This document shows positions 1,324 through 55,622 of a stretch of 64,000 nt of DNA, one piece after another. The notes below the pieces were generated by a model, which had not been told where the DNA came from, made no database searches, and saw only the letters and a list, made by a program, of their open reading frames with translations. The position numbers were made by a program, and so were the translations under genes. Source of the DNA: an uncultured virus (IMG/VR IMGVR_UViG_2645727837_000002) (lineage: Duplodnaviria; Heunggongvirae; Uroviricota; Caudoviricetes); the IMG/VR virus record IMGVR_UViG_2645727837_000002, positions 1 through 64,000 of that record; one strand, given 5' to 3'. The stretch's first letter is position 1, and every line of letters starts with the position of its first letter.

Positions 1324-2040
1324 TCAAATCTCGCCAAGAAGCGGCAACAGATCCAATGAAATAAGCCGCGCCTCGATGTTGTGCGCCGCAACCAAATGCT
1401 CTTCGTTGTCGACGGAGAACACCTCGTCCTTGATGCTGACAACAATCGTGCCGAGCCGCTTCTTGCCATCCGCGGAGGCGACGGCAATGAGTTCCTGCGC
1501 CTCCGGGACTTGTTGGGCGGTAAGTTCGACAGGCAGATACAGCATCCATCCGACGCCGGGACGATCATCAAACGCCTGCTTTTGCTCATAGCCCTCAGGC
1601 GCCGCAGTAACAACAGCGGGTGAAAACTCCAGCACAATCTGCTTCACGACGGCGACGGCGTGCTCCTTGTTCTCTGCGAACGCGCCTCGTGCGCCAACCG
1701 TAACCGTGTCAGGAAAGTCTCCACCACACGCAAAGACCGTGATCGACGCGCCAACATCATCGACCGCACCGCCATCCCATATCCCAACAGTGGACCCGAT
1801 TTCACCACGATATTCACTTTCCAGCGCCTCTAGCGCCGTGTTACTCGGCTGACCGTCCACCTGATAAACCTCACTACGCCGAGCCTCTTCTAGAGAATCC
1901 CCTTTCATTCGCCAGTTTGGCCGTGCAAGCGCCGGTTCACCTGCCGCCATCACGTCAATGATTGCACCTGTCTTGGTCAGAATTTGAGCGAAGTCCGTTG
2001 CAGCGACCCCTCCACTCCTGATAATGGCTTCAAATTTCAT
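1324..2040 (-). CDS. Imm52-family immunity protein (TsiT-like)
   Basis: Directly downstream of the REase toxin; FDDRPGVGWMLYLP and C-terminal IEARLISLDLLP resemble Imm52. Confidence 0.8.
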   Translation of the reverse strand: MKFEAIIRSGGVAATDFAQILTKTGAIIDVMAAGEPALARPNWRMKGDSLEEARRSEVYQVDGQPSNTALEALESEYRGEIGSTVGIWDGGAVDDVGASITVFACGGDFPDTVTVGARGAFAENKEHAVAVVKQIVLEFSPAVVTAAPEGYEQKQAFDDRPGVGWMLYLPVELTAQQVPEAQELIAVASADGKKRLGTIVVSIKDEVFSVDNEEHLVAAHNIEARLISLDLLPLLGEI

Positions 2041-2049
2041 AGCGGTATC

Positions 2050-2661
2050 TTACGGAAGATATTCTGACTCGATTGACATCAACCTAAGCAACTTCGACAT
2101 CTTTTGATACGTCAGTGGACCCTGAAAATAATACCTTAACCGGGTCGGCGGATTCGGCTTCACTATGCGCGCACGTTTGCGCGCCTGATCCCCCATCCGA
2201 TCGAGCCCCTTAAAAAATTCGTCCGACTTCGGAATCGACCCATCAAGGAACTGATCGTAGTTCCCCTTGGCCTCTTGTAATAGGCACTCATTTGGCCTGA
2301 ACCCGTCGAACTCGATTCCTAACCACTCCCACTCGTCACTCCATCGACAATTTTCAGTATCAAAGGCGAAGCCGGTCACGCGGGCTTGATAGCGATACGC
2401 CGGCCAGTTGACGCCGTGATTGTTTCGCACGAGCACACCCGTCTGCTCCGGCGGACACTTCCTGCAAGGCTCCGTAGAGTCGGCTGTAGTCCGCGATTCC
2501 GTTTTGGTCTTCGCCTGCTCATCCATCTTGCTAACATCGCCCCGCATACTACCGATGCCCGCTACCGCCGTCCCTCCCAATAAAGCGCTTCCAATAGCTG
2601 ACAATGCCGGCCCCACTTCCGCCGCTACGGCTATCAATAGGGGGATAAACGGTGCTGCCAT
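2050..2661 (-). CDS. Tox-REase-5 nuclease T6SS effector (TseT-like)
   Basis: CxxC (CRKC), YQARVTG and FDGF..CLLQEAKGNY (PD-(D/E)xK); hydrophobic N-terminus. Confidence 0.88.
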   Translation of the reverse strand: MAAPFIPLLIAVAAEVGPALSAIGSALLGGTAVAGIGSMRGDVSKMDEQAKTKTESRTTADSTEPCRKCPPEQTGVLVRNNHGVNWPAYRYQARVTGFAFDTENCRWSDEWEWLGIEFDGFRPNECLLQEAKGNYDQFLDGSIPKSDEFFKGLDRMGDQARKRARIVKPNPPTRLRYYFQGPLTYQKMSKLLRLMSIESEYLP

Positions 2662-3019
2662 GTGGGACTCCCTTCAAGCTATCTGGATGTTGTGATCGCC
2701 AAGTGACTTCTTGGACGTAGACGTGAAAACGCTCATCGGCACTGCGACCGGGCTTCGTGAGCCAAGCCCGCGTCGCGGGTTTCGCGTAGAAGCCTGGCGA
2801 ATAAGCCTCAACCTTCAGGAACTGGACTAGGTGCTCGCTGTCCTTGATGCCGAGCGAGCGCGCGGCCTGATATGCGTCCCACAATCGGTTGGGTAGATCG
2901 ATGTCCTGTGCCAAAGCAGGATCGGCCTTGATCAGATCGCGACGCACACCGTCAACGAAGTTGCGGGCCTCGCCTGCGGCGAGCGCCGAAAGATGGGCGG
3001 GTGTGAGATTAAGCGGCAT
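2549..3019 (-). CDS. Putative effector co-chaperone (co-TecT position)
   Basis: Lies between DUF4123 and the toxin, as in the PAAR-TecT-coTecT-TseT-TsiT gene order; overlaps the toxin 5' end. Confidence 0.6.
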   Translation of the reverse strand: MPLNLTPAHLSALAAGEARNFVDGVRRDLIKADPALAQDIDLPNRLWDAYQAARSLGIKDSEHLVQFLKVEAYSPGFYAKPATRAWLTKPGRSADERFHVYVQEVTWRSQHPDSLKGVPHGSTVYPPIDSRSGGSGAGIVSYWKRFIGRDGGSGHR

Positions 3020-3506
3020 GGGGGTGCGCCCTAAATAGCTGTCCGTCGATCTCGATCAGCCAATCGAAGGTAGGGGAAAAGAACATAGTCCGCTCTGCCG
3101 AACTCAACGCCGGCGCGAAGTACCGCATCACGCGTGCGTCGTAATAGCGCAGCATCGCCGTCCGACCGTCTGGCAATGTAGCATCCAGTCGTTCGCGAAG
3201 CTCATCCGCAAGCAGGCGCGGTTGGTAGGCGCTGATGATCCAGTTCAACCCGTATTCGCCTTGAGCTAAGCGCGTCAACACGTCGCGCGTCGTGCTGTTC
3301 GTCTGCTCGTAATCAAAGAACCACGGGCCGGCATCGGCAAGCGACGCGTCTGGGGTTCCGTCAAGCAGCGCCATCGCCGATTCACCCGAGCGCACTGGTG
3401 CTGAACCGCTCGATTCTGAATACAGCAGACCATCCGCGAGCGCGAATAGGCGGAGCGGAAGACTGGCGCGCGCCTGCCACGAAGAGAAAATGACCTGAAT
3501 ACTCAC
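3009..3506 (-). CDS. DUF4123 T6SS effector chaperone (TecT-like)
   Basis: LFALADG, ADAGPW and MLRYYDARV motifs typical of DUF4123. Confidence 0.88.
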   Translation of the reverse strand: MSIQVIFSSWQARASLPLRLFALADGLLYSESSGSAPVRSGESAMALLDGTPDASLADAGPWFFDYEQTNSTTRDVLTRLAQGEYGLNWIISAYQPRLLADELRERLDATLPDGRTAMLRYYDARVMRYFAPALSSAERTMFFSPTFDWLIEIDGQLFRAHPHAA

Positions 3507-3512
3507 GGCGCG

Positions 3513-3944
3513 TCACCCGCGAACGACCATTGACGCTGCATTCTTAGCAGCAGCAAGCATGCAGGACAGACAGAAGCCCTGCGACGGCTTCGGTGTACCC
3601 GAATCAAGCACCATGCGCCCACCGTCTGCGGCGAAACCCATCCCGAGAAGCTGATGCGATTCAAAGCTCTCATACATGGTGTCTTGCGAAGCAATCATCG
3701 ATGGGCGTGGGCTGCACCCGCAAGCAACCCTGTCCCCCTCAAGAGCGGCCTGATGACCCATCATTTCACCGGGCCATCGCGGCCCCTCGGCAACGATAAC
3801 ACCAAGCTGTTTACAAGCCGGACAGGTTACTTTTGCGCCGATGTAAGTTAGTTCGCGCCCATAGCAAGTCGTAGATGGGATGCCATCGACAACAACACCG
3901 CCGGACGACGAGTAATCGCCAACCCGAAGAAAGTTTCGCTTCAA
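3513..3944 (-). CDS. PAAR-domain T6SS spike tip protein with C-terminal extension
   Basis: RVGDYSSSGGVV..VTCPACK..AALEGDRVACGC..MIASQ; C-terminal CLSC extension. Confidence 0.88.
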   Translation of the reverse strand: MKRNFLRVGDYSSSGGVVVDGIPSTTCYGRELTYIGAKVTCPACKQLGVIVAEGPRWPGEMMGHQAALEGDRVACGCSPRPSMIASQDTMYESFESHQLLGMGFAADGGRMVLDSGTPKPSQGFCLSCMLAAAKNAASMVVRG

Positions 3945-6959: not shown

Positions 6960-7006
6960 CTTGTTTTGAGGGCCGGTGGTGGTCGGCCCTTCCTGCGTGT
7001 GGTGGA

Positions 7007-7586: not shown

Positions 7587-7934
7587 TTAGTAAGTCTCGG
7601 GTGGTGCGGTAAACCAGAGTCGGCGCGGAACAGGACGTTCGACGGGCATCGCGTATTGGATGATCATGTCGTCATCTCGAACCTGAACCATCGTGATCAG
7701 CCCTTTGTCGTGCTTCTCACGTGCGCTTGCCAGAATCCGTTCAAACCTTTCATTCCAGCGGCGTTCCGCAGGGTACTTGCGCGCAATGATGAAGGCGTAA
7801 TTTCCAGGGTTTCCCCAGCCGAAGAGTTCCATTTTGTTCATCTCTTCGACGACACGTTCCAGGGTGGTGTCAAGGAACGTGGCGATAAGCTGGGGGGTGA
7901 AGTTTTGATCAAGTAGCGTTTTGATGGACTCCAT
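7587..7934 (-). CDS. Hypothetical phage protein
   Basis: Operonic ORF with an RBS. Confidence 0.65.
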   Translation of the reverse strand: MESIKTLLDQNFTPQLIATFLDTTLERVVEEMNKMELFGWGNPGNYAFIIARKYPAERRWNERFERILASAREKHDKGLITMVQVRDDDMIIQYAMPVERPVPRRLWFTAPPETY

Positions 7935-11037: not shown

Positions 11038-11640
11038 TTATGCTTCGACGACGTCGCCGGCTGCTGCGAGGCTCGGGTGCTTCGTGGAGTGGTCACGCAC
11101 TGCGTAGAGGACCTTGAGCTGGTGGAGCACGTCGAACAGTGCGCTGTGGGCGTCGCCTTCGAACGGGATGTTGCGTTCGAACTCGGGCGGTTGCTGCGGC
11201 CAGTAGCGTCCGCGAATCCACGAATTCATGTCGTTGGTGTCGCGGTAGTGGAACGGGTTGCCGATCTCGAATTCCTTGAAGTAGCTTTCGAGGAACGGGT
11301 ATTCGAAGTGCGAAGGCTTCGCCCACAAGCGCAGCTTCTCGTTGTAGGTGTCGACGTCACGCAGCAGGAAGTCGCGGAAAGCCTGCATAACGACTTCCGG
11401 CCGCTCCATGCGCGCGTAGATACCTTGCAGGATCTCGCGCTTGTCCTTGAGCCACCAGTTGCGGGTCTCTTCGTCGAAGAAGCGACCATGCGGGATCATC
11501 AGGCAGCGGTTGAACATATCGGGCATGATCTCGCCCGATGCAAAATCGAAGCGAACCGCCGCGATTTCGATGATTGCCGTGCGCTCAGGCTGAGTGCCAG
11601 TCGTTTCGAGGTCGACCATCACGTCGAGATACTTGGTCAT
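11038..11640 (-). CDS. DEDDh 3'-5' exonuclease
   Basis: VMVDLETTG..RDT..HSALFD. Confidence 0.85.
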   Translation of the reverse strand: MTKYLDVMVDLETTGTQPERTAIIEIAAVRFDFASGEIMPDMFNRCLMIPHGRFFDEETRNWWLKDKREILQGIYARMERPEVVMQAFRDFLLRDVDTYNEKLRLWAKPSHFEYPFLESYFKEFEIGNPFHYRDTNDMNSWIRGRYWPQQPPEFERNIPFEGDAHSALFDVLHQLKVLYAVRDHSTKHPSLAAAGDVVEA

Positions 11641-11653
11641 GCTTTGATCCTTG

Positions 11654-12061
11654 TTAGATGAGGTAGCCGTCGATCTCGTGCCAGCGGATCGATTTGGCCG
11701 TATGGGTGATGAATACGACTGCCGGGACGACGTACCAGCGCTTCGTCGTCTCGCGGCGAATGTAGAAGCGGTAATGCCCGCCAGCTGCGGTGACCATTCG
11801 GGCTGCTGCCCACTGGCTCTTCTTGATCATGCTGAAGGGGAACGACGGCTCGCTTTGAGTGCTCTTGACCTCAGCGTAGAACGTGGTCCCTTCAAGGGTG
11901 ATGATGTAGTCAGACGGTTGCGCATCCTTGAAGGATGCGGCCCGCCCTGTCGAACCGCGAACGTACGCGGTGTCGGTCAAGCGCTGCACATGCGCGCGCT
12001 TGCCGAAGGGCGCGAAGAACGATTCGAACTCGCTCTCCGCGTCTTTCCATACAATGCTCAT
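11654..12061 (-). CDS. RecU-like Holliday junction resolvase (PD-(D/E)xK)
   Basis: PSDYII..FYAEVKST..SQW. Confidence 0.7.
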   Translation of the reverse strand: MSIVWKDAESEFESFFAPFGKRAHVQRLTDTAYVRGSTGRAASFKDAQPSDYIITLEGTTFYAEVKSTQSEPSFPFSMIKKSQWAAARMVTAAGGHYRFYIRRETTKRWYVVPAVVFITHTAKSIRWHEIDGYLI

Positions 12062-12138
12062 TTTTCTTTTACTGATGTGGTGGTGGTGTGCTAAGCATTA
12101 TATGGAGATAACCATCGCAGAAGTTCTGCAACTATATG

Positions 12139-13428: not shown

Positions 13429-13586
13429 GATTGGTCCTTCGTGGTGGTGTTCTTCAGGGTGGCCAGTTCCTGGCCTTGTTCGTGGATCGTCAGCAGGAGG
13501 TCCAGCACGACCCGCGGAATACACATCTTCCGCAGGTCATTTCGCTGCTCACGCGTCAGATCCTGGAGCGTGAGCTTCGACTTCAC
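13356..13586 (-). CDS. Hypothetical phage protein
   Basis: GTGA coupling with the upstream gene. Confidence 0.5.
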   Translation of the reverse strand: MKSKLTLQDLTREQRNDLRKMCIPRVVLDLLLTIHEQGQELATLKNTTTKDQSCTALTDSWPSAVQPRLASRRRKL

Positions 13587-16485: not shown

Positions 16486-16674
16486 TTACCCCGCCACTTC
16501 GTCGGCAGCTTCAGCGCCGACCAGCGCGAGTGCCATCATCGCGTGAGTCGGTTCCGCATCGAGCATCGCCCGGAACTGGGCGGCGATGCCGTCGATCTTG
16601 GTACGATCATCTTCGGGGAGCTTCGAAATCTCGTCTTGAATGACGAGCAGCTGAATACGTTCAGCAGAGGCCAT
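16486..16674 (-). CDS. Hypothetical phage protein
   Basis: AAGGA RBS; operonic position. Confidence 0.65.
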   Translation of the reverse strand: MASAERIQLLVIQDEISKLPEDDRTKIDGIAAQFRAMLDAEPTHAMMALALVGAEAADEVAG

Positions 16675-16696
16675 GTTTTGATCCTTGTGGTGGTGG

Positions 16697-17473
16697 TCAC
16701 ATCATGAAATCTGAGAGGATGTGGTTGATCGCTTTGTCGTCGTGTTGGCCGACAACCAGGTGCTTTGCGATCAGGTCCGGGTCAACTTCGTAGAAGCCCG
16801 TGATCTCCCACATGCCTTTCAGTGCTGCTTCGTTTTCCTTCACCCACGCCAGCGGCTTCTTGCTGAGGTAGAAGGAGCCGGCTTCGCTATCCCAGCAGGG
16901 CGCGTAGCCCTCGGTGAAGAACTGCATCCAGCGCTCGCGGTCGCAGTGCTCCCACGCCACGTCGCCGAAACCGGGGATACCGGTGATCTTGTCGGACTTG
17001 TCACCAACGAGCGTCTTGTACAGGCGCACTTCGGTGAAGTTGGTGTTGTCGTACTGAACCTTGTCGCGTCCTTCGAGCTTCGTGTGCTTGCCGTCGCACA
17101 GCGCGAGGTAGTCGCCGTCAGTCGAGTGGATGGTGATCGAGTCCGTCTGGTCTTTGTAGAGACGATGCAGTGTGGCAATAACGTCGTCCGCTTCCCATGT
17201 GGGGATCTCAAGCGACATGCAGCGCGTGAAGCGCAGCACCTGCTTGAACAGGTCCATCGTCTTGTAGAACTCGTCTACGGCGCTTTGCCGGCCGACCTTG
17301 TATCCGGGGTAGAGCGCGCGGCGTCGGTCCTTCGCGCCGTGTCCATCCCAAACCCAAATGATGGTGTCGAACATCGGCAGCATCTTCATGTCGACCAGCA
17401 CGTTGCGAATCGAGCCGCTGGTTTCGAAGATGGTGCGGAAACGGTTGTTTCCGTCGATGAAATGCAAACCCAT
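16697..17473 (-). CDS. 5'-3' exonuclease / flap endonuclease
   Basis: IDGNN, YKVGR, EADDVIA, STDGD and GDKSDKITGIPGFG (H3TH). Confidence 0.9.
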   Translation of the reverse strand: MGLHFIDGNNRFRTIFETSGSIRNVLVDMKMLPMFDTIIWVWDGHGAKDRRRALYPGYKVGRQSAVDEFYKTMDLFKQVLRFTRCMSLEIPTWEADDVIATLHRLYKDQTDSITIHSTDGDYLALCDGKHTKLEGRDKVQYDNTNFTEVRLYKTLVGDKSDKITGIPGFGDVAWEHCDRERWMQFFTEGYAPCWDSEAGSFYLSKKPLAWVKENEAALKGMWEITGFYEVDPDLIAKHLVVGQHDDKAINHILSDFMM

Positions 17474-18253: not shown

Positions 18254-18396
18254 AAAATTCCTTCAAATGTTAGCTGTTTATGCGTCTGTTTCTGCTTCTG
18301 CTCTCTCGCCGTGGTGGTGGACACGTCGAGGAATAAGATCGTACCTTCGTGCTACTAACTACACAATGCTGCTCTATACGATAGATCGCGCCCTCC

Positions 18397-20681: not shown

Positions 20682-21406
20682 GCTGCCCTCCCTCGGGCGG
20701 TGGGTAGATCGGAAAGCATGTCCTCGCGACGCGCATAGCGCCGCAATACAGCCACGCCAAGGCTTTCGAGGGGGAGCGACACTATCAGCCCCTCCTCGCC
20801 GGCCAGCAGGGCCGTCTTGAGACGCTGTGCCGGCTTGCGCGCGACGACGTCATACGTGCCTGTGATAATCACGCGACGCGGCATGTACACCGACTGATCG
20901 ATGATCGCGTCAACGACCTTCTGGTACTTCGGGTTGGCCTGCGTCAACACCAGCGGCTGGACGTTGGTTCGCTCCAGCTCTGCACTGATGTCGTTCGGTG
21001 AGAAGTGCCATATCGGCCGCACAATCGGCTGGATAGGGCTGCTCATGCGCGAGAGCGTGAGCAGCGTGAGCGTCATCTCGTCGTTCGTGTCCTCCATCAC
21101 GAACACCCCAGCCTCACCGTCCCCCTTCGGGATTGGCAGCATGACCCTGACCAGCGGGTCCCGAGCCAGAGCCTGGAATTGCTTCCAGTGCGTCGGGTCC
21201 GGAACCGCCGCGCTCACGGGGAAAAGGTGGTTGCATGCAAGCCTGCGCGCCGGCACCACCGCATACGGGGATGGTGCCTTGAGCGACAGGAAGTTCGATG
21301 CGTTGCGACCTTGATGCAGGTACGCAACGCCTTCAGCGTTCCAGTGGATTCCGTACGTCCGTACTTCGATCTTGTGGTCTGCTTCCTCGTTGTGTTGGTC
21401 CTTCAT
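20678..21406 (-). CDS. Hypothetical phage protein
   Basis: 242-aa coupled ORF. Confidence 0.65.
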   Translation of the reverse strand: MKDQHNEEADHKIEVRTYGIHWNAEGVAYLHQGRNASNFLSLKAPSPYAVVPARRLACNHLFPVSAAVPDPTHWKQFQALARDPLVRVMLPIPKGDGEAGVFVMEDTNDEMTLTLLTLSRMSSPIQPIVRPIWHFSPNDISAELERTNVQPLVLTQANPKYQKVVDAIIDQSVYMPRRVIITGTYDVVARKPAQRLKTALLAGEEGLIVSLPLESLGVAVLRRYARREDMLSDLPTARGRAA

Positions 21407-21807
21407 AGCCGTATCAATTCACCGACGTGCTTCTTCGTGTATCCCGAAAGGTCCATGAGATCCGTGAGCGTCACTTCGTAACGTCCGGTCTCGACGGCCG
21501 CGACCTTATGAACGGTCCAACCGAGCCGTTCGGAAGCTTCCTTTCGGGTGTGTTTGAGTTCGATCGCTCTGCTGAACGCAAGCGTCTCGCCAAGCCGCTC
21601 ATGAGTGCGGCCAAGCGTACGTCTCACAGGTTGTCCCTGTTGTTCAGCGTTCTCTACCTTCTTCCGCTGAGACGCCTTGACTCCCTTGGCAGCGATGATT
21701 GCCCTGATCGACGGAATCGACAGAGCGAAATCACGAGCGAGAGCCGAGGCTGACTTGCCGTCGACGTAGAGATCCGCGATCTGTTGATCGCGTTCCTCCT
21801 TCGTCAT
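21403..21807 (-). CDS. Transcriptional regulator with two HTH domains (Mor-like plus XRE-like)
   Basis: RDQQIADLY..SALARDFALSIPSIRAII and RKEASERLGWTVHKVAAVETGR. Confidence 0.7.
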   Translation of the reverse strand: MTKEERDQQIADLYVDGKSASALARDFALSIPSIRAIIAAKGVKASQRKKVENAEQQGQPVRRTLGRTHERLGETLAFSRAIELKHTRKEASERLGWTVHKVAAVETGRYEVTLTDLMDLSGYTKKHVGELIRL

Positions 21808-21815
21808 CGCAAGGC

Positions 21816-22043
21816 TCAGACTTTCATGTAGGGGAAACGAGTCGGGTGCTTCTTGATGAGGCTGCTGAAGGCCGCGCCAAACGATTCGGCCACGACCAGC
21901 TGGTCGACGACTTCCTTCGGCACGTTGCTGTACTGGTACTCGTCGCCGTTCTTGACGAAGACGATGTTGAGTCGCTGATCTTGTTCGTTATATGCGAATG
22001 CGGAGATCTGCGACGAAGTCACAGACGTGTAGCCAGATTTCAT
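21816..22043 (-). CDS. KTSC-domain protein
   Basis: VTSSQISAFAYN..LNIVF..YQYSNVP..LVVAESFG. Confidence 0.85.
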   Translation of the reverse strand: MKSGYTSVTSSQISAFAYNEQDQRLNIVFVKNGDEYQYSNVPKEVVDQLVVAESFGAAFSSLIKKHPTRFPYMKV

Positions 22044-22157
22044 GTTTCGATCTCTTATAGATTGAAGGTTGCTGTTCAGGTGGTGGTGACACCCGTTGCT
22101 ACGGTGAGCCTTTACGGGAAGCGTGGTGGTGGGTCGCTTACCGTGGGGCTTTACTGC

Positions 22158-28724: not shown

Positions 28725-28799
28725 CGTTGTGGTGGTGGTTTGTTAGCGGTTTCGGTGACCGAGGCGCGTGGCCAGACGAGCCTCGTTCAACTTGAACTT

Positions 28800-32601: not shown

Positions 32602-32625
32602 GGTGTGTGGTGGTGATGAGGGTAT

Positions 32626-35168: not shown

Positions 35169-35477
35169 TCAGAAGACGTATTCGTCGTTGTGGTAGATAG
35201 TCAGCGCCACCGGCGTGTCGGCCGTCGTGTACGGGTTGTAGGTGATACCCGTAATCTTCGCGCCCGTCTCGCTCTCGAATCGGGCAATCGCCCGCTTGAT
35301 GTGCTCGCTCAGTTGAAATTGGAGCAGATCGCGAGCGAACTTCACTTCGCGCCTCGTGTACGGCGCAGGAGGTTCAACTTGAACCGTTGCGTTCGTGATG
35401 AGTTTGTCGACGTCAGCCGCGACCGCTGTATTGACGTCAACTTCAGTCGTATTCTTGGCCAGTTCTTGGGTGCTCAT
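35169..35477 (-). CDS. Hypothetical phage protein
   Basis: Start preceded by CACCACCACCACGGATCAAAAC. Confidence 0.65.
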   Translation of the reverse strand: MSTQELAKNTTEVDVNTAVAADVDKLITNATVQVEPPAPYTRREVKFARDLLQFQLSEHIKRAIARFESETGAKITGITYNPYTTADTPVALTIYHNDEYVF

Positions 35478-35499
35478 GTTTTGATCCGTGGTGGTGGTG

Positions 35500-40808: not shown

Positions 40809-41384
40809 ATGACGATGGAGAAAGAGAAACTTAAGCGCCAGGACTTTACGGTTGAGATGGCTCGCGAGCACTTTGGCTACGACCCAGCAGCAGGTCGCGT
40901 TATTCGTCTGACAAACAGTCCGAGAGGGCCTAGATCTGCCGGAAAAATCGCCAGCTCCTTACACAAACCATCAGGTTTTCGGCAGGTAGTTTTCAAAGGG
41001 TTAGTCATCTATGAACATCATCTCGTATGGGCACTCGCCTATGGATACTGGCCTACAGGCTCGATTCGCCATCGAGACGATGACAAGCAAAACAACCAGG
41101 TTGAGAACCTGTTTGACCCCGCCCAAGTTGTAACCGTAAGTAACCTTGCGGACACGAAAGACGCTTTCCCAGGAGTCATCGTCACCAACTCCGGGAACTA
41201 CAGGGCCACCATTTATCGAGATAAAGCAATCCACCTTGGCACGTTCTCAAGTCCTGTAGAAGCGCATGAGATGTACCTTGCAGCCAAGGTCGTTCTTCAT
41301 AGTCCTCTTAACAGAGGAGTAAGTACCGATGAATTGCTAAAACCTCTTTTGATAAGCCGAAAGGGACTTGCAAAGGTAGGTTGA
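40809..41384 (+). CDS. HNH endonuclease with AP2-like DNA-binding domain
   Basis: HHLVWAL..IRHRDDDKQNNQVENL; FPGV..YRATI..HLGTFSSPVEAHEMY; low GC. Confidence 0.85.
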   Translation: MTMEKEKLKRQDFTVEMAREHFGYDPAAGRVIRLTNSPRGPRSAGKIASSLHKPSGFRQVVFKGLVIYEHHLVWALAYGYWPTGSIRHRDDDKQNNQVENLFDPAQVVTVSNLADTKDAFPGVIVTNSGNYRATIYRDKAIHLGTFSSPVEAHEMYLAAKVVLHSPLNRGVSTDELLKPLLISRKGLAKVG

Positions 41385-41396
41385 GACAGGTAAAGT
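41368..41396 (+). promoter_or_regulatory. Sigma70-type promoter of the candidate sRNA
   Basis: TTGCAA (41368-73), 17-nt spacer, TAAAGT (41391-96). Confidence 0.65.
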
Positions 41397-41402
41397 TAAC
41401 AA

Positions 41403-41568
41403 AGTGCTTGATGATCTGTGGTGGTGAGTCAAGCATGGCAAGTTGAGAGACTTGTCTTAGGCAGTCGAGGTGGCCAGCCTCACTGTCAGCCCTCTTCAGG
41501 GGCATGTTTTGATCAATGTTAGCTGTTAGGTCGCCCCGAGGATTAGCTACCCTCGGGGCGATTTTTTT
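41403..41568 (+). ncRNA. Candidate multi-seed trans-acting small RNA
   Basis: Promoter, four hairpins, an unpaired U-rich tract and a terminator; loops and tract are complementary to motifs at many phage start codons. Confidence 0.75.
41531..41568 (+). terminator. Intrinsic terminator of the candidate sRNA
   Basis: TCGCCCCGAGG, 9-nt loop, CCTCGGGGCGA, then T7. Confidence 0.9.
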
Positions 41569-41616
41569 CGTACTCGCGTTTCTAGTAGTTCTCTTCGCGG
41601 TTATACATGCTCAGCA

Positions 41617-44136
41617 TCAAGCGGCGATGGGCTTCGCGCCAGAAGGGGCCGTCGATGTACTCTGCGAACCCAACGATCCCACAAGTGTGAGGTTTTCGTA
41701 CTGAATCTCCTGTCCCCCCAGCTCCGTGTTTCTGATCGTAAGCTTGAATCCGAACTCGGTAGCCAATTCCCGCATCTTGGCTCTGAACTGCGTCGATCCA
41801 ACAGGCTTGGCACTTCCCGGCCCTACGCAGAAGGACCAGTATGTCTGATAGAGCTTCGTTTCCACCACCGAGATGGGGGCTGAACTCTTCGACCCAGCGG
41901 ATGCCTCCGGTTGGAGAGCGCCCATCCGCACCTTGCCACTCTCCGTGAGAAAAAACCGGACGCTGTTGTTGAGGTTGGCGACTTCACGCATGGTCTGCTT
42001 ATGCGAATCGGGCAACGTGAACTCGTTGTGCGCCTTCAACCGACTCATCGATTGCACGGCCCACGCGACGATCGCTTCACGCTCCTCGACGACGATCACA
42101 TCCCCGAGGTCCAGGCGGCGCTCAGAGGCCTTCACGGGCCGGTTGAACTGAAGCACGAGCCAGCGACGGTTGAAGCCCTCAGACGTGTCTTCCGTGCGCG
42201 GATAGTGGTTCGACGCGAACCAGTGCGTGCAGATCGGCCGGAAGCGGAAGATCTGGCCACCCTTCATCTGCCCTGACATCTCCGCGCCGTCGATAATGTC
42301 CTTGAAGCGCTGGCCGTCGACCAGTTTCTTCTCGCTCAGCTCACCCGCGACGTTGATGATCTTCTCGAACATCTGCGTCGGCAGGAACTTGTCGGCCCAC
42401 TCGTTCGGCGGCACCGCAGCGCGCGCGTTGTCGGGCACGAGCGACTGTGCGATCTTCAACAACTGGCTCTTCCCGGACTTCGGCGCACCCTGAAGCAGCA
42501 CGGCGCGCTGGAAACGCGGGCCGAGACCGAACAGCGTGACGGCCAGCGCCTCTTGAATAGCGTCAAGCTTCTGCTGGTAGTCCTCATCCTCACCCCAGCT
42601 CTTCTTCAGGAATTCGAAGAACATCGGGCAATTTCCCGAGATTTCGGGCAGGTAACGGAACGGCAACGTGTAGATCATGCCGTAGCCGGGGTCGTGATTC
42701 AGCAGCTTCAGGTCTTCCGTGAGGAAGCCGTTCGCGAAGTTCACCCCGCGCACGTCGAGCGTGCGAATACCCTGCGGCAAGATGGTCTTCATCAGGTTGT
42801 GAATGCCGCGGATGTCGTTGAACTTCTTGCACGCTGTCAGATGGCCATAGTCGGCCGAGATCTTCGACAGCACGTAGTTGTCGTCGAGCTTTTCCCAGTG
42901 CGAACCGGCCCACTTCCAGAGAAAGCCGTTATGCGCGCGCACGGGGAACATCTGTTCGAGATCCTTGATAACGGCGCGCGCCACTTCCGACTGATCTTGA
43001 CCCTTGATCTCGCCCATACGCAGCTCTTTGATGCGCGCCTTGAGCGAAGAGAGCTTCAGACCCATGCCACCCGACGTCGAAATGAAGTCAAGGATGCGGT
43101 CCTCTTCGAGCTTGTTGAGGCTCGACGTCGTGGCCACCTTGTGCAGCGCCTTGTCGATCGACTGGCTGCGCTGCGGCGAATCCTTCGGAAAACGCTCGAA
43201 TTCGTCCAGGAGGAACTGCTTGAGGTCGTCGAACCCCCATTCTTCCTGCTCTTTCGTGAAGTCGAGGCTGTACGCCTGCTTCTCTTCGTCGGTCAGACCG
43301 TCGTCCCAACCACTCGGCAGCACCTTCTGCTTGTCGTAGACGTCACGGTGCAGGAACTTGATCATGTTCTTGACGTGCTTGTCGACGTCGATCGGATCAC
43401 CTGCAACGTTCTCCACGAAGTCGGCCGCGTACGCCTGAAGCATACCGATGGCTTCCTTCAACGAGCGGTCGCCGCGCATGACCGCGTACGCGAAGAGGCC
43501 TGCGCGTTCCGTCAGCGACGTGTCGCGCGAGCCGGCCGACGCAAAGTCAACCACGCGCGTCCAACCCGAGTGCGACAGCTCGACGCCGGCTTCCTGCAAC
43601 GCGGCGCGCAGCATCGATTCGATCTGCGGGTCGAGCGCCGGCAGCATGTGGACGACGTCGACCAGCTCGCAGTTCGCCTCGTACGGGCGCTTCGTGTCCG
43701 GGTGGATAGACGGCGGCAGTACGGACTGCGTGCGAGCCGACAGCATTTCGCAGATCGTCTCGCCCGACGTGTTCTTGATACGGAAGGTCTTCAGGCCCGT
43801 GTACTTGAACGCGAGCATCATCCCCTTCTTGCCGATACGGCACCACGGCGACGCCGGCAGCAGACTCTGGATGATCGACGTCAACCGCTGGTCGACCGTG
43901 TCGATGTCCATCATGACGATGCCCGACTGCGGGCCGAGCACGATACCGATGTTCGACGTCGGGCACTGCTCGATCCACACCTGCTGTTGCTCAGGCTCGA
44001 CCGGATGATCGAAGTAACGCGACCAGTCGTTCGGGATCGGCTTCTTCTCTTCGGGGTAAAGCGGGATGACGGGCAGGCCCTTCGCGTAGTACCTCGGTGC
44101 GGTCTGCGCAAAGATCGGTTGACGTTCAGTTCTCAT
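41617..44136 (-). CDS. Bifunctional primase-polymerase fused to a D5-like SF3 helicase
   Basis: N-terminal VIPL..KKP..NIGIVLG..MDID..VLPPSIHP; C-terminal Walker A GAPKSGKS, FASNH, FNRRW. Confidence 0.9.
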   Translation of the reverse strand: MRTERQPIFAQTAPRYYAKGLPVIPLYPEEKKPIPNDWSRYFDHPVEPEQQQVWIEQCPTSNIGIVLGPQSGIVMMDIDTVDQRLTSIIQSLLPASPWCRIGKKGMMLAFKYTGLKTFRIKNTSGETICEMLSARTQSVLPPSIHPDTKRPYEANCELVDVVHMLPALDPQIESMLRAALQEAGVELSHSGWTRVVDFASAGSRDTSLTERAGLFAYAVMRGDRSLKEAIGMLQAYAADFVENVAGDPIDVDKHVKNMIKFLHRDVYDKQKVLPSGWDDGLTDEEKQAYSLDFTKEQEEWGFDDLKQFLLDEFERFPKDSPQRSQSIDKALHKVATTSSLNKLEEDRILDFISTSGGMGLKLSSLKARIKELRMGEIKGQDQSEVARAVIKDLEQMFPVRAHNGFLWKWAGSHWEKLDDNYVLSKISADYGHLTACKKFNDIRGIHNLMKTILPQGIRTLDVRGVNFANGFLTEDLKLLNHDPGYGMIYTLPFRYLPEISGNCPMFFEFLKKSWGEDEDYQQKLDAIQEALAVTLFGLGPRFQRAVLLQGAPKSGKSQLLKIAQSLVPDNARAAVPPNEWADKFLPTQMFEKIINVAGELSEKKLVDGQRFKDIIDGAEMSGQMKGGQIFRFRPICTHWFASNHYPRTEDTSEGFNRRWLVLQFNRPVKASERRLDLGDVIVVEEREAIVAWAVQSMSRLKAHNEFTLPDSHKQTMREVANLNNSVRFFLTESGKVRMGALQPEASAGSKSSAPISVVETKLYQTYWSFCVGPGSAKPVGSTQFRAKMRELATEFGFKLTIRNTELGGQEIQYENLTLVGSLGSQSTSTAPSGAKPIAA

Positions 44137-44677
44137 TCGAAGACTCTTGTGTGGTGGTGGACGCAGCGTCATCGTCGGAACGACGAGTGTTGATTGCGCT
44201 GCGCAGGCGTTCCATGACCTCAGTGCGCTGATCCGGCGACATGCACTCTTCCATGATGCTCAGGACGGTGTCCTGGAAGTCGCGAATCTGCTTGATCCCC
44301 AGTGCACGCTCACGAGCTGTCACCAGACGTTCGAGAAGACTGGTCGCCGTGCGAAAGTACGCCATCCGCTCCGTCTGGTCTGATTGAGGGATGGTCTTGC
44401 CGTAGTTCTTCAGGTCGGCGAAGACTCGATACAGGTCGATGTCGAGACTCGAATCGATCTGGTCCTCGGTGATCTCGAAATCCGCTATGTCAACCTTCTT
44501 TTGTTCAGGTTGAACCTGACGATGAATCAGGTTCGAGATCACTTTCTTGAAATCGACACCGTAAGGGCATGCTTCATCGTCAAGATAGGCCGCATTCTCC
44601 GTGGCCAAGGTAATGATCATCTTGATCGACCACTCGACATGATCGGTAATGACCGGGTAGTGAAAGTCGTTGCTCAT
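44126..44677 (-). CDS. Hypothetical protein divergent from the large terminase (possible small terminase)
   Basis: 183-aa helical ORF coupled to the primase; function inferred from position only. Confidence 0.5.
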   Translation of the reverse strand: MSNDFHYPVITDHVEWSIKMIITLATENAAYLDDEACPYGVDFKKVISNLIHRQVQPEQKKVDIADFEITEDQIDSSLDIDLYRVFADLKNYGKTIPQSDQTERMAYFRTATSLLERLVTARERALGIKQIRDFQDTVLSIMEECMSPDQRTEVMERLRSAINTRRSDDDAASTTTQESSNEN

Positions 44678-44882: not shown

Positions 44883-46667
44883 ATGTCAAACCAGTATCTC
44901 CAACAGCTCTACGAACGCGCAGCGAACCGTTGGTCGAAGGACCGCGCGTCGATGACCTATGGTGACTGGATCTGTGCAAACACCACGCACAACGACAGGG
45001 CTTTCTCGTTCAAGCGCTACCCGTTCCAGAAGCAGATCGCGGACGACATGCACGACAACCTCGACTGCATCAAGCCGTCGCAGGTTGGCCTGACCGAAGT
45101 ACAGATCCGCAAAGTGCTCGCGTTCATCGCTCGAAACCGTGGCGTGAACGTCATCTACACGCTGCCCGACGAGGCCATGATGGAGCGCATCTCTGTCGGC
45201 CGGGTTCGACCACTCGTCGACGAGGAACACGCGTTCAACCTCGAATCGCTCGGTGGCAAAAAGCCGACGCGCACAAAAGAGATCATTCAGGTCGGCAAGA
45301 GCTTCCTCTACCTCACGGCTGCTGGTGAAGGGGCCGCGACGTCCATCTCCGCAGACATGGTCGTGAACGACGAGGTGGACTTGACCGATCAGTCGATGCT
45401 TGCCCTCTTCAACTCGCGACTTCAAGGTTCCGACTGGAAGCTGAACCACCGGTTTTCGACGCCGACCTTCCAGGACTACGGCATCGACCAGACGTACAAG
45501 GTTAGCGACCAGCACGAGTACATGTTGAAGTGCGCCTGCTGCAACCACTGGCAGGTGCCTGACTTCGAGCGCCCGTTCGTCCGAATCCCTGGCCTTCCCG
45601 ACAGTCTGGACTTCGAGGAGATTGAAGAGGCGATGATCGACGCCGGCACGATCGACCTCGACGCCGTCTCGATCCACTGCGAGCACTGCGGTGCGCCGCT
45701 GAACCTTGGCGACCACGAGCGCCGCGCATGGGTGCCGAAGTACCCGCAGCGCAAGCACGCGCGCGGCTATCGCGTGCGCGCCTTCTCGACCGAGCGCCTG
45801 CCGCCGAAGTACATCCTGCGGCAGCTCTTCATCTACAAGCGCAAGGACTTCATCCGCGGCTGGTACAACACCGTGCTCGGGCGCTCCCACACCGGGGGCG
45901 ACCAGCGCCTGAACGACGCGGACATCAACGCGGCCTTCACCGAGTTCCAACTGGTCCGTCCGTCGAGCAACACGATGCCGGCGTGGCTCGGCATCGACAT
46001 CGGCCAGACCTGTCACATCGTCGTCGGCGAAGGCTACGACGTGTCGTCGATCCACGTGGTCGAGTTCCTGACAGTGCCGGTCGGCCGCTTGTTGGAGGAG
46101 ATCGCGCGCATCCTGACCACGTACCGCCTCGTTGCCGGTGGTTGTGACCGTCACCCGTACACGCCGACCGCCGAGGCGGTGCGCGATGCGTCACATCGCC
46201 GCGTCCTGCCGAACGAGTACCGTGGCTCGAAGGAAATCAATCTCGTCAAGGACCCCGCCGGCGAGATCACGCACATGCAATCCAACCGGACACTCCTGCT
46301 CGACGAAGTGGCCCGAGCCATCCGGCTGCGCAAGATCAAGTTCTCCGGCTACGGGACGCACCGCTCGGCGATCGTTGAGCACCTGAAAGACATGGTTCGC
46401 AACGAAGAACCTGAGAAAGAAGCGGAATGGAAGAAGCTGAACGGCAACGATCACTTCTTCCACGCGCTGGGCTTCATGTTGTCTGCCGTGAAGCTGCACA
46501 CCACCAACGCATCCGCACTCTTCAACACGGAAACGCGCAGTGTCATCCAGATCGTCGGCGCGACCGTGGGCATGAACGAGACCAGTCAACTCACGCTGGC
46601 CAATACCAAACACACCACTGGCAACTTGATCTATGGCAACGACCACCACCCCCAAGTCTTCTTCTAA
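44883..46667 (+). CDS. terL: Terminase large subunit (lambda gpA-like)
   Basis: KPSQVGLTE, VNDEVD, FSTPT, CACC/CEHC Zn motifs, LGIDIG, DHFFHA. Confidence 0.9.
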   Translation: MSNQYLQQLYERAANRWSKDRASMTYGDWICANTTHNDRAFSFKRYPFQKQIADDMHDNLDCIKPSQVGLTEVQIRKVLAFIARNRGVNVIYTLPDEAMMERISVGRVRPLVDEEHAFNLESLGGKKPTRTKEIIQVGKSFLYLTAAGEGAATSISADMVVNDEVDLTDQSMLALFNSRLQGSDWKLNHRFSTPTFQDYGIDQTYKVSDQHEYMLKCACCNHWQVPDFERPFVRIPGLPDSLDFEEIEEAMIDAGTIDLDAVSIHCEHCGAPLNLGDHERRAWVPKYPQRKHARGYRVRAFSTERLPPKYILRQLFIYKRKDFIRGWYNTVLGRSHTGGDQRLNDADINAAFTEFQLVRPSSNTMPAWLGIDIGQTCHIVVGEGYDVSSIHVVEFLTVPVGRLLEEIARILTTYRLVAGGCDRHPYTPTAEAVRDASHRRVLPNEYRGSKEINLVKDPAGEITHMQSNRTLLLDEVARAIRLRKIKFSGYGTHRSAIVEHLKDMVRNEEPEKEAEWKKLNGNDHFFHALGFMLSAVKLHTTNASALFNTETRSVIQIVGATVGMNETSQLTLANTKHTTGNLIYGNDHHPQVFF

Positions 46668-49873: not shown

Positions 49874-49998
49874 AGAACGGCGGCAGATGACCTCGCCCAC
49901 CACCGGGGTCATCTGCTGGAAAAGCTGCAAAACCCTCGTCAGTTCCGACCACCACCGGGCTGTCGGGGGTTCAAAAACAACTGACAACGGATCAAAAC

Positions 49999-51192
49999 AT
50001 GGCAGATCTGATCGACATCGAGCGCAAGGCCCCTGCGGAGGTACTTGCGAACCTCAAGCCGAGCGACGCGCTCGACACCCAGCGCTCGGTTGACGCTGGC
50101 AAGCGCCTCGTGCGCCTTTCCGCCGAAGCTGGCCTGAACCTGCGTGACTACCTCACGCTCGCGATCGACCCGCGCAAGGCCGAAGACTCGGCCCGCTACG
50201 AAGGCCTGAACGGCTACGAAGCCGCCCTCGCCTACCTGAACCTGCCGGTTCGCCAGGATCTGTCGCAAGGCGTCCTGCTGCAAGCCGCTTCGGAAACGTT
50301 CCAAACGTATCCGGGCACCCGCGCGATGTTCCCGGAAGTCATGGACGACATCCTGCGCTGGAAGAACCGCCAGGACCAGATCGAACAGGTCGCTCCGCTC
50401 GTCGCACAGTCGCGCACGATCAACGGCACCGAGATGATCTCGACGTTCGTCGAAGACGACTCGAACGAGCGCACGACGCACACGATCCCGGAACTGGGCC
50501 GCATCCCGGTTCGCACGATCCGCACGTCGCAACAGACGGTCGGCATCTTTAAGCACGGCTCGGGCTACCGTACCTCGTACGAATTCAATCGCCGCGCTTC
50601 GCTCGACATCATGACGCCGTTTGCAGCGCGCGTCGGCCGCGAGCTGGAGATCTCGAAGGTGCGTGCCGCGACGGCCATCCTGATCAACGGCGACGGCGTC
50701 AACGGCGCAGCCGGCGTGGTCAAGGTGTCGGATTTCGGCGGCGACGCCAGCAAGGCGTTCTCGTCGAACTACAAGGCGCTCGCGAAGTGGCTCATGGCCC
50801 GCGCGAAGGCTGGCTACCCGATCGACACGATTATCGGCAACTACGACATGTTCGTGGAGCTGCTGTTCATGTTCCAGCCGGTGACGGGCATCTCGGGCGC
50901 GCACGCGACCGACATCGAAGCGCTGGTCGCGCAGGGTACGCCGAAGATCAACACGCAGGTGCCGATCCTCAACCAATCGGTGAACTTCCACCTGTCGTCG
51001 GCCGTGCCGGAAGGCAAGCTGGTCGGCTTCACGAAGGCTGAAACGCTGGAAGAGCTGATCGAAGCCGGCTCGAACATCTCGGAAAACGAGCGTTCGATCC
51101 TGAACCAGTCGATCACCTACGTGCGTACGGAAAACACCGGCTACAAGCTGGCGTTCCCGGACACGCGCCAAGTCCTCGACGTGACCGCGTAA
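49999..51192 (+). CDS. Major capsid protein
   Basis: 397 aa, position, strong codon bias, terminator follows. Confidence 0.85.
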   Translation: MADLIDIERKAPAEVLANLKPSDALDTQRSVDAGKRLVRLSAEAGLNLRDYLTLAIDPRKAEDSARYEGLNGYEAALAYLNLPVRQDLSQGVLLQAASETFQTYPGTRAMFPEVMDDILRWKNRQDQIEQVAPLVAQSRTINGTEMISTFVEDDSNERTTHTIPELGRIPVRTIRTSQQTVGIFKHGSGYRTSYEFNRRASLDIMTPFAARVGRELEISKVRAATAILINGDGVNGAAGVVKVSDFGGDASKAFSSNYKALAKWLMARAKAGYPIDTIIGNYDMFVELLFMFQPVTGISGAHATDIEALVAQGTPKINTQVPILNQSVNFHLSSAVPEGKLVGFTKAETLEELIEAGSNISENERSILNQSITYVRTENTGYKLAFPDTRQVLDVTA

Positions 51193-55220: not shown

Positions 55221-55622
55221 ATGTCGACCACCACCACGCGACAATCCCCGTCCGCAAAAATCGAAATTACCCTGGCCGGCGAGAAGAAGAGCTTGTTCAT
55301 GTCTTTTGGCTTACTCAACGAACTGTGCCGTGGCATTGGCGATGCCCAAGGCGCGTTGCAAGTCACCGCCAACTCTCAACTTCGCGATTTCGTCCTGATG
55401 GTTGTGCTGTCCGATCGAGACGAAGAAGGCAATGTCGTCAAGCCGATCAACGTCAATCGAATCGAAATGTCGATCGATGACGGTGAACGCCTGCTCGACT
55501 GGGTATCGCAGCACGCGACTGATTTTTTCGTCCGGACGATGGAGAGAATCGTCACGGGGCACAAGGACAAGGAAAGCCGGTTGAAGGCTCTGAAAGAGCT
55601 GGCCGAAAACCCGGCAAGCTAA
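55221..55622 (+). CDS. Tail assembly chaperone (gpG-like)
   Basis: Between the tube and tape measure genes; slippery heptamer near the 3' end. Confidence 0.7.
   Translation: MSTTTTRQSPSAKIEITLAGEKKSLFMSFGLLNELCRGIGDAQGALQVTANSQLRDFVLMVVLSDRDEEGNVVKPINVNRIEMSIDDGERLLDWVSQHATDFFVRTMERIVTGHKDKESRLKALKELAENPAS

Follow-up and report, generated by a model that had tools for sequence, protein, structure and literature searches.

The window analysed here, a stretch of 64,000 nucleotides (nt), corresponds to bases 1-64000 of a provirus record of 79,966 bp in IMG/VR (IMGVR_UViG_2645727837_000002). According to PHROG and Pfam scans, it carries an integrase at 1-1275, an extended block of genes with replication and nucleotide functions on the minus strand (thymidylate synthase, MazG, SbcCD, exonucleases, resolvase, ligase, DNA polymerase, helicase and topoisomerase), and terminase, portal and capsid genes on the plus strand from 44883 onward. 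The subject of this report is the locus of a small RNA (sRNA), located in the gap of 232 bp that separates an HNH endonuclease gene from the converging primase gene. A sequence-only reading of the window had proposed a self-contained plus-strand RNA gene at this position, with unpaired parts antisense to the starts of many early, replication and morphogenesis genes; the gene itself was confirmed, and the complementarity, as predicted from sequence, was found conserved in five genomes. The RNA gene is very probably real and represents a new RNA family, a new form of a known type of regulator, and the RNA is very likely to pair with start regions of its own phage.

The fold of the plus strand of the locus has an energy of -73.9 kcal/mol (z = -4.77), a value that none of 200 shuffles equalled, and consists of four hairpins, a linker left single-stranded and a terminator; the minus-strand fold is weaker (z = -3.34). 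Hairpin 1 displays the loop core GUGGUGGUG at 41418-41426, and CATGTTTTGATC is found at 41503-41514; their coordinates and those of the other parts are collected in Table 1. The -35 hexamer of the putative sigma-70-like promoter falls within the last codons, at the 3′ end of the HNH gene. Promoter hexamers are present in all 13 homologues (TTGCAA, TTGCCA or TTGCGT, followed by TAAAGT, TATAGT or TATATT), spaced by 16-17 nt, placed 16-19 nt before the loop string GATCTG and scoring 8-9 of 12, and it is this positional conservation, and not the promoter scan, that supports the putative promoter. At the 3′ end, a U7 run after a 14-bp stem, with the linker AUGUUUUGAUCAAUGUUAG in front, has the form expected of Hfq-dependent sRNAs, a terminator hairpin with a U tail behind a U/A-rich single strand. 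The tails of the relatives range from U3 to U8, compensatory changes affect seven of 13 terminator pairs, and the terminator scan misses this hairpin because its loop is 9 nt long. The same scan scored hairpin 4 plus AUGUUUUGAU (41489-41514) as terminator-like, and a shorter transcript of about 105 nt, without seed 2, can be envisaged.

Two further regulatory features of the locus were considered and rejected. TTGAGAG-like repeats near the promoter were evaluated as an operator, and showed neither an excess nor a cluster of four or more in 150 nt in any genome. In L009-L011 and L015, although not in the window, an A-tract precedes the terminator stem and makes the terminator look bidirectional; a read-through switch driven from the converging primase operon was dropped for this reason, and antisense transcription of the RNA gene from that operon may be confined to some lineages.

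As for known RNA classes, a scan of the window detected no tRNA or tmRNA, and Rfam gave no family at gathering score, nor any C4 antisense RNA match, in the 64 kb. The Rfam search, which the earlier reading had suggested, left the locus without a family match: in 41200-41700, with a cut-off of E up to 10, only four chance-level matches were obtained (E 0.6-2.2), and GcvB was not among them.

The closest named phages are the Achromobacter phages JWF and 2-1 (68-70% identity in the primase, 74% in the capsid protein), followed by Xylophilus phage Lumi and Caulobacter phage Seuss, and the chromosome of Burkholderia paludis MSh1 contains, at about 183-260 kb of NZ_JPGL01000001.1, a prophage with 91-93% identity to the window. 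Fourteen related loci were gathered via the primase, of which 11 presented the complete element, two only its 3′ part at the contig end, and one belonged to a contig ending inside the primase gene. Including the window and the B. paludis copy, the homologue set comprised 13 sequences, 12 of them distinct, from about six lineages of JWF-like phages and prophages. The covariance model R1 found exactly one copy in each of the related genomes G001-G005 (E 1e-32 to 1e-40) and matched the B. paludis copy with 172.6 bits. Among its 34 modelled pairs, 96.8% of the 408 pair cells were paired and 17 pairs had changed on both sides, values reached by none of 500 shuffles; sliding the partners by 1-3 columns lowered the pairing to 36-52%. 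RNAalifold reported compensatory changes in 16 of the 34 pairs, and the stem pairs of hairpin 1 showed GC, CG and AU changes on both sides in 3-5 of 12 sequences. When folded separately, nine out of ten homologues returned the same five-hairpin layout, including a hairpin 2 whose sequence differs entirely among lineages.

Four unpaired elements were invariant or nearly so in the alignment: loop 1 (GAUCUGUGGUGGUGAG), the hairpin-3 loop (GGUGGCCAGC), the linker (GUUUUGAUC(C), read as GUUUCGAUCC in one lineage) and the terminator loop (GAYUAGCUAYC). The HNH protein beside the RNA diverges to 46-55% identity while these loops remain invariant. Lineage-specific sequences are found in hairpin loops 2 and 4 and in the 3′ half of the linker. 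Both invariant apical loops without a partner in start regions contain a palindrome, UGGCCA in hairpin 3 (41469-41478) and UAGCUA in the terminator (41541-41551), which could serve for loop-loop dimerisation or as a protein site, and the two seeds described below have GAUC in common.

A blastn comparison of the locus with 50,697 phage records gave no match. In JWF, 2-1, Lumi and Seuss, R1 found no homologue, either at the syntenic locus with filters off or in the whole records, where a terminator-like match in 2-1 was the only one. An exact 16-mer scan of viral contigs returned 20 loci, 11 of which were relatives already in the set and nine of which had no R1 match (E up to 0.001); in genome contigs, B. 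paludis MSh1 was the only true homologue among the 80 loci listed out of at least 120. A genus-wide R1 search, in which 30 candidates were scored per genome, placed the RNA in at least one of 95 genomes, a figure to be taken as a floor. In metagenomes, a first pattern gave no matches, and none of the 80 loci listed for a second pattern (out of at least 119) matched R1.

It is extremely unlikely that the region is merely the 3′ untranslated region of the HNH gene with its terminator, or that it codes for the minus-strand open reading frame (ORF) of 65 amino acids (aa) at 41308-41505. The RNA region does follow the HNH gene immediately in 11 of the 14 related loci searched, the contigs of the other three ending too early, and the ORF begins with the same GATCAAAACATG context as some of the predicted targets. 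However, the ATG of this ORF is replaced in L009-L012; the antisense ORFs within the RNA span only 15-42 codons and vary in length among homologues, and Pfam returned nothing for the one in the window. Furthermore, the changes observed are compensatory for the RNA stems, the loops are preserved beside a diverging HNH gene, and the positioned promoter is kept.

Complementarity to gene starts was investigated in the record of the window itself (G000) and in the whole records G001, G002, G004 and G005, to which all five-genome counts below refer, with the record of the window first. Two motif pairs emerged: loop 1 is complementary to ACCACCAC (seed 1) and the linker to GGAUCAAAAC (seed 2). Since energy tests did not separate starts from controls, they were replaced by counts of contiguous Watson-Crick matches of at least 9 nt in start regions defined as -40 to +20. 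For loop 1, such matches were present in 13/90, 11/91, 14/105, 12/104 and 6/98 start regions, against 0/363, 0/383, 1/393, 0/405 and 0/375 internal windows and 0-1 antisense windows. The corresponding values obtained with the linker were 6/90, 5/91, 4/105, 4/104 and 3/98, against 1, 0, 1, 0 and 0 internal windows. The hairpin-3 and terminator loops showed no enrichment in start regions, the former having matches of at least 8 nt in 0-2 start regions per genome.

The distribution of the motifs points in the same direction. On the plus strand of the window GTGGTGGT occurs 29 times and ACCACCAC six times, and on both strands together ACCACCAC reaches 42, 36, 37, 24 and 29 copies in the five RNA-bearing genomes, where about three would be expected (about 3.1 for the 42 copies in the record of the window). 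Clusters of ACCACCAC fall within -60 to +30 of a start on the same strand in 19/30, 18/31, 17/27, 13/24 and 12/22 cases (79/134 in total), a zone that represents 5-6% of the sequence (5.1% in the window; binomial P from 9e-18 in the window to 5e-10). The flanks of the motif extend the match to the real loop, with 43 of 84 clusters reaching at least 10 nt (16% expected, P = 2e-13) and 21 of 84 reaching at least 11 nt (5% expected); the longest loop-1 match measures 14 nt (CTCACCACCACAGA). For the second seed, five of the six copies of GATCAAAAC outside the RNA gene in the window are located 9-21 nt ahead of a called start, the match running through the ATG in three of them. One GATCAAAAC copy (TTGATCAAAAC, an 11-nt linker match) at 7902-7912 on the minus strand lies far from called starts, 22 nt inside the uncalled ORF 7587-7934. 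Altogether, the motifs appear to be kept at the start regions of about 15-25% of the phage genes, and about 15-25 start regions are matched.

Of roughly six seeds originally proposed, loop 1 and the GUUUUGAUC linker stood, being both enriched at starts and conserved. The remaining ones did not: the loops of hairpin 2 (GTTGAGAGA) and hairpin 4 are not conserved among relatives, and the hairpin-3 loop is invariant and has no start-region matches. All strings quoted in support of these seeds were found in place, such as GATCAAAACATG at 49990 with its complement at 16672 and 35475, the G:U variants at 11638 and 22041, AATGTTAGCTGTT at 18266 and CTTCAGGG at 13452, 20102, 25342 and 37261. However, the stretch of the RNA to which the 13-mer AATGTTAGCTGTT corresponds is not the same in other lineages, and according to a rough hand estimate about 0.3 matches of this kind would be expected by chance per genome.

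Comparison with phages lacking the RNA links the motif to its presence. JWF, 2-1, Lumi and Seuss have 8, 10, 7 and 5 copies of ACCACCAC, respectively, and in B. paludis the host flanks contain 0-2 copies per 10 kb as opposed to 2-10 inside the prophage. The orthologous leaders of primase, thyA, resolvase and capsid genes present the motif in all five RNA-bearing genomes, and none is found there in JWF or 2-1. The 12-mer TCACCACCACAG occurs twice in the 8.6-Mb genome of B. paludis, in both cases in the prophage. Covariation between seed and target, another expectation of the earlier reading, was observed for the linker, loop 1 being invariant. In G004 the linker carries a U-to-C change (GUUUCGAUCC), and four start regions, those of the capsid gene, a 61/62-aa gene, a 129-aa gene and a 90-aa gene, show the matching A-to-G change (GGATCGAAAC); their orthologues in other lineages read GGATCAAAAC or variants tolerating a G:U pair. 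At a threshold of at least 11 nt, the linker matched 4, 4, 2, 2 and 0 start regions of its own genome and none in most cross-lineage comparisons, and in G001 the linker and its targets have the lineage-specific flank ACAATGGATCAAA in common.

These data bear on the possibility that ACCACCAC is a signal independent of the sRNA, i.e. a translational enhancer or a protein site, with the RNA doing something else, such as sponging or regulating host targets, and an incidental complementarity. C/A-rich elements alone can enhance translation, according to the available text of the GcvB study (PMC3879156), and the invariant loops UGGCCA and UAGCUA, which have no partner in phage start regions, imply at least one interaction of the RNA that is left unexplained. 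We nevertheless consider this reading highly improbable: the motif flanks match the specific loop beyond the repeat, RNA and motif excess occur together in five of five genomes and in none of the four without the RNA, a second, unrelated seed targets start regions likewise and with a compensatory change, and both copies of the 12-mer in B. paludis are in the prophage.

The predicted target sites of the window are listed in Table 1 after the parts of the RNA, followed by the neighbouring genes. In five out of five genomes the leader hairpin of the thymidylate synthase gene presents CCACCAC in its loop on a covarying stem, and both elements of the capsid leader are kept. The hairpins before these two genes (6965-6995 and 49940-49965) show (A)CCACCAC in the loop and have stems that covary among the five genomes, which suggests a loop-loop contact. 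A TATAAT box is found about 10 nt before ACCACCAC in the resolvase leader (window 12040-12100) in the five genomes, and also at that place in JWF, so that the motif may sit at the very 5′ end of the mRNA. The primase most likely starts at ATG 44136 and not at 44172, as relatives align from the former residue, and ACCACCAC lies between the two ATGs.

Table 1. Coordinates of the RNA gene, of its predicted target sites and of neighbouring genes in the window.
Feature	Coordinates	Strand	Remarks
sRNA transcript, predicted, ~166 nt	41403-41568	+	5′ end placed from the -10 position; 3′ end at the T7 run
Sigma-70-like promoter, putative	41368-41396	+	TTGCAA 41368-41373, 17-nt spacer, TAAAGT 41391-41396
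Hairpin 1	41404-41436	+	Stem covaries; loop GATCTGTGGTGGTGAG 41413-41428 invariant (seed 1)
Hairpin 2	41437-41456	+	Stem in every homologue; stem and loop sequence lineage-specific (separate folds of 10 homologues; alignment)
Hairpin 3	41460-41487	+	Invariant GGTGGCCAGC at 41469-41478; loop holds palindrome UGGCCA
Hairpin 4	41489-41503	+	Stem covaries (4/5 pairs changed on both sides); loop not conserved
Linker, single-stranded	41504-41527	+	GTTTTGATC (41506-41514) nearly invariant (seed 2)
Rho-independent terminator	41528-41568	+	14-bp G+C-rich stem (41528-41564), 9-nt loop with conserved UAGCUA, T7
Seed-1 target ACCACCAC	44151-44158	-	15-22 nt before primase ATG 44136; 5/5 RNA-bearing genomes, absent in JWF and 2-1
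Seed-1 target in hairpin loop (GGGCCG-ACCACCAC-CGGCCC)	6976-6983	-	Before thymidylate synthase ATG 6959
Seed-1 target ACCACCACCAC	12077-12087	-	Before Holliday-junction resolvase ATG 12061; 5/5 genomes
Seed-1 target	13441-13448	-	Before DNA ligase ATG 13428; G000 and G001 only
Double target ACCACCACCAC then GGATCAAAACATG	16672-16697	-	Before 62-aa gene, ATG 16674; 4/4 genomes having the gene
Double target ACCACCACCAC directly then GGATCAAAACATG	35475-35498	-	Before 102-aa gene, ATG 35477
Target GATCGAAACATG (G:U variant)	22041-22087	-	At ATG of 75-aa KTSC-domain gene; ACCACCAC 46 nt upstream
Seed-1 target	28729-28739	-	5 nt before ATG 28724, 252-aa gene
Seed-1 target TCACCACCACA (11 nt)	32606-32616	-	Before ATG 32601
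Capsid leader targets	49948-50001	+	Hairpin with ACCACCAC 49948-49955; GATCAAAACATG 49990-50001 including start codon
Seed-1 target	46642-46649	+	Codons 4-6 of portal gene, ATG 46633
Seed-1 target	55227-55237	+	Codons 3-6 of 133-aa gene, ATG 55221
HNH endonuclease gene	40809-41384	+	PHROG/Pfam
Primase gene, Prim-Pol/DUF5906	41617-44136	-	PHROG/Pfam
PAAR	3516-3944	-	Type VI secretion cargo cassette
DUF4123 adaptor	3012-3506	-	Type VI secretion cargo cassette
Tox-REase-5 nuclease toxin	2053-2661	-	Type VI secretion cargo cassette
Imm52 immunity protein	1327-2040	-	Type VI secretion cargo cassette

The motif-bearing starts have an unusual ribosome-binding context. Their duplex with the anti-Shine-Dalgarno (anti-SD) sequence averages -2.46 kcal/mol (n = 63, 6% at or below -6), compared to -5.57 kcal/mol for the other starts (n = 406, 48% at or below -6; Mann-Whitney P = 1e-13), and the genes presenting the motif just after the AUG are equally SD-poor (mean -3.08, n = 19). 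The motif is predicted to be unpaired (P 0.85 vs 0.43 for a control stretch), and the start region around it is more open than in other genes (0.57 vs 0.47). As the motif-bearing genes are almost devoid of SD sequences, the accessible C/A-rich element is probably a landing or enhancer site for the ribosome, and the GcvB-like pattern, with a GU-rich seed facing CA-rich elements, leads us to read the phage RNA as a repressor.

The explanation that we regard as the best one overall, and as fairly probable, is that of a multi-target sRNA repressing SD-poor start regions through two seeds. The RNA would be a trans-acting, base-pairing sRNA of a temperate JWF-like Burkholderia phage, transcribed by the host RNA polymerase from its own promoter in the last HNH codons and ending at the Rho-independent terminator. 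Loop 1 (16 nt, core GUGGUGGUG) and the linker GUUUUGAUC would pair with the ACCACCAC and GGAUCAAAAC motifs, the former located anywhere between a few and about 50 nt ahead of the start, or within the first codons, sometimes in a hairpin loop, and the latter directly before the AUG. The linker, together with the CAT in front of GTTTTGATC, covers the GATCAAAACATG of the targets. Pairing at the C/A-rich element, and for seed 2 also at the AUG, would block initiation, so that the whole set, comprising primase, thymidylate synthase, resolvase, ligase, capsid, portal and many small genes, may be repressed together, with the putative purpose of silencing leaky lytic genes in the lysogen or of timing expression during infection. 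Transcription, pairing in vivo, repression rather than activation and the physiological purpose are parts of this model that we infer from the DNA sequence.

Several observations weigh against this model and should be considered with it. The gene starts come from a simple composition-based script, which is a crude caller, and the five genomes are related, which means that their counts are not independent. The duplex energy of the whole RNA is equal for start regions, controls and shuffles, and loose seed-energy cut-offs give no enrichment over internal windows. Loop 1, the main seed, is invariant, and co-change is seen for the linker only. Motifs in the first codons also encode Thr runs, and selection at the protein level may account for that subset. 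The promoter scan, which requires at least 9 of 12, calls none at the locus, where the site of the window scores 8 of 12. In a soil metatranscriptome run, the one contig matching the region, of 152 nt, falls on the HNH gene (40973-41122) and none falls on the RNA, which is uninformative either way. Finally, the targets might lack SD sequences because their initiation requires the motif or RNA bound to it.

In this last respect, RNA bound at ACCACCAC might act positively, helping the 30S subunit to start on SD-less messages as an adaptor or SD stand-in, or protecting them from decay. Motif and SD are almost mutually exclusive, even with the motif placed after the AUG (n = 19, mean -3.08), the JWF orthologues of the target genes show SD-like purine runs at the position of the motif, and SD-like GGUG/GGUGA strings can be recognised by eye in loops 1 and 3 of the RNA. 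The UGAUCC of the RNA is moreover complementary to GGAUCA, the sequence expected in the 3′ tail of the 16S rRNA. On the other hand, the SD-like strings measure only 4-6 nt, the motif and its start region are already predicted to be open (0.85 and 0.57) and therefore offer no inhibitory structure to melt, and in the window seed 2 extends over the AUG, an arrangement that normally blocks initiation. The literature searches on sRNAs or phages met no precedent for a bacterial SD adaptor acting in trans, and a bacterial trans-acting stand-in for SD recognition is not known to have been described. Positive action of the RNA is judged improbable. Its most far-reaching form, a private initiation channel in which about a fifth of the genes are SD-less and are translated only when the phage RNA is bound beside the start codon as a licence factor, appears decidedly improbable.

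With repression by a multi-target sRNA as the preferred explanation, it may be asked whether the RNA is the main immunity or lysogeny factor of the prophage, an RNA repressor comparable to P1 c4 or P4 CI that would silence about 20 lytic genes in the lysogen. The phage of the window is integrated (integrase at 1-1275, prophage of 91-93% identity in B. paludis), the promoter resembles those used by host sigma-70, the predicted targets include primase and structural genes, and no clear CI-type repressor was found among 57 proteins of the early region. The sole match of helix-turn-helix (HTH) type among these 57 ORFs is HTH_31, at E = 2.5e-4 and below the Pfam cut-off, in a 134-aa ORF at 21406-21807 on the minus strand, which represents a candidate repressor. 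With just one weak HTH match in the early region, RNA-based immunity is a possibility. However, not recognising a repressor in a set of small unannotated proteins is weak evidence, and G003, G004 and G005, in which no PF00589 integrase is found, have the RNA and its regulon to the same extent. The integrase is carried by the phage of the window and two relatives, and G004 and G005 lack any homologue of it. A role as the main immunity factor is considered doubtful.

Beside the integrase, at 1327-3944 on the minus strand, the window contains a type VI secretion cargo cassette (Table 1).

Phage sRNAs known so far have one or few targets, mostly host genes, according to the available part of a 2025 review (PMC12197685). 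The sequence evidence collected here points to a single phage RNA that is connected with about 15-25 start regions in its own genome via two dedicated motifs, an arrangement preserved in six lineages and with one seed-target compensation visible. If true, this would amount to a viral regulon working on the principle of GcvB, and also to a natural test bed for SD-independent initiation, in which the same motif could be studied with and without its RNA. It might be regarded as a compact orthogonal translational switch, consisting of one RNA and one tag of 8-9 nt, and may explain how lytic genes are kept quiet in a large temperate siphovirus without an obvious CI repressor. If instead the adaptor reading were true, the expression of a set of genes would be conditional on one phage transcript.

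Among known systems, sRNAs of the DapZ/MicL type derive from 3′ ends and have their promoter inside the upstream coding region. The phage RNA is similar in that its -35 hexamer lies in the last HNH codons and that it shares the terminator of the HNH gene, while it differs in that the upstream gene is fast-evolving, homing-endonuclease-like and without an evident functional link to the RNA. P4 CI RNA is a structured phage RNA with loop complementarity that acts on the phage's own transcripts. Both P1/P7 c4 and P4 CI act on one operon at two or three sites and are cut from a longer precursor, whereas the RNA described here matches about 15-25 scattered start regions and has a promoter and a terminator of its own. 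Like it, c4 is phage-encoded, presents complementary sequences in loops and acts on transcripts of its own phage, as stated in the available part of the review (PMC12197685). The same source describes VpdS of vibriophage VP882 (about 50 nt) and PreS of lambda (about 88 nt) as trans-acting RNAs with a terminator-type 3′ end that bind Hfq and shift mRNA levels in favour of the phage, their targets being mainly host genes or host sRNAs, e.g. dnaN (PMC12197685). Its available text reports no dedicated motif across the phages' own start regions for VpdS and PreS, such as the RNA of the window has, and none for the other RNAs that it lists, among them 24B_1 and c4 (PMC12197685). In the accessible portions of the literature on JWF-like or Burkholderia phages, no description of this RNA or of a ACCACCAC start-region motif was found.

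The statement of the sequence-only reading that no equivalent had been described is too strong, given the loop-presenting phage antisense RNA c4 of P1 (PMC12197685) and GcvB, a multi-target sRNA of similar mode (PMC3879156), as far as the available texts describe them. In GcvB, a conserved, unstructured GU-rich region pairs with CA-rich, translation-enhancing elements in or near ribosome-binding sites and silences them (available part of PMC3879156). GcvB is an enterobacterial, Hfq-dependent, chromosomal RNA concerned with amino-acid transport and metabolism, its seed is a linear region and its targets keep their SD sequences; here, the RNA is phage-borne and directed at the virus's own genes, the seed is a hairpin loop and SD sequences are almost absent from the targets. 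No sequence or structure match between the two was detected with Rfam. What they have in common, from the part of the GcvB report consulted, is one RNA with dozens of targets in GcvB and many here, and a G/U-rich seed (GUGGUGGUG in the phage RNA) facing C/A-rich elements (ACCACCAC) at gene starts, a likeness in mode and not in family.

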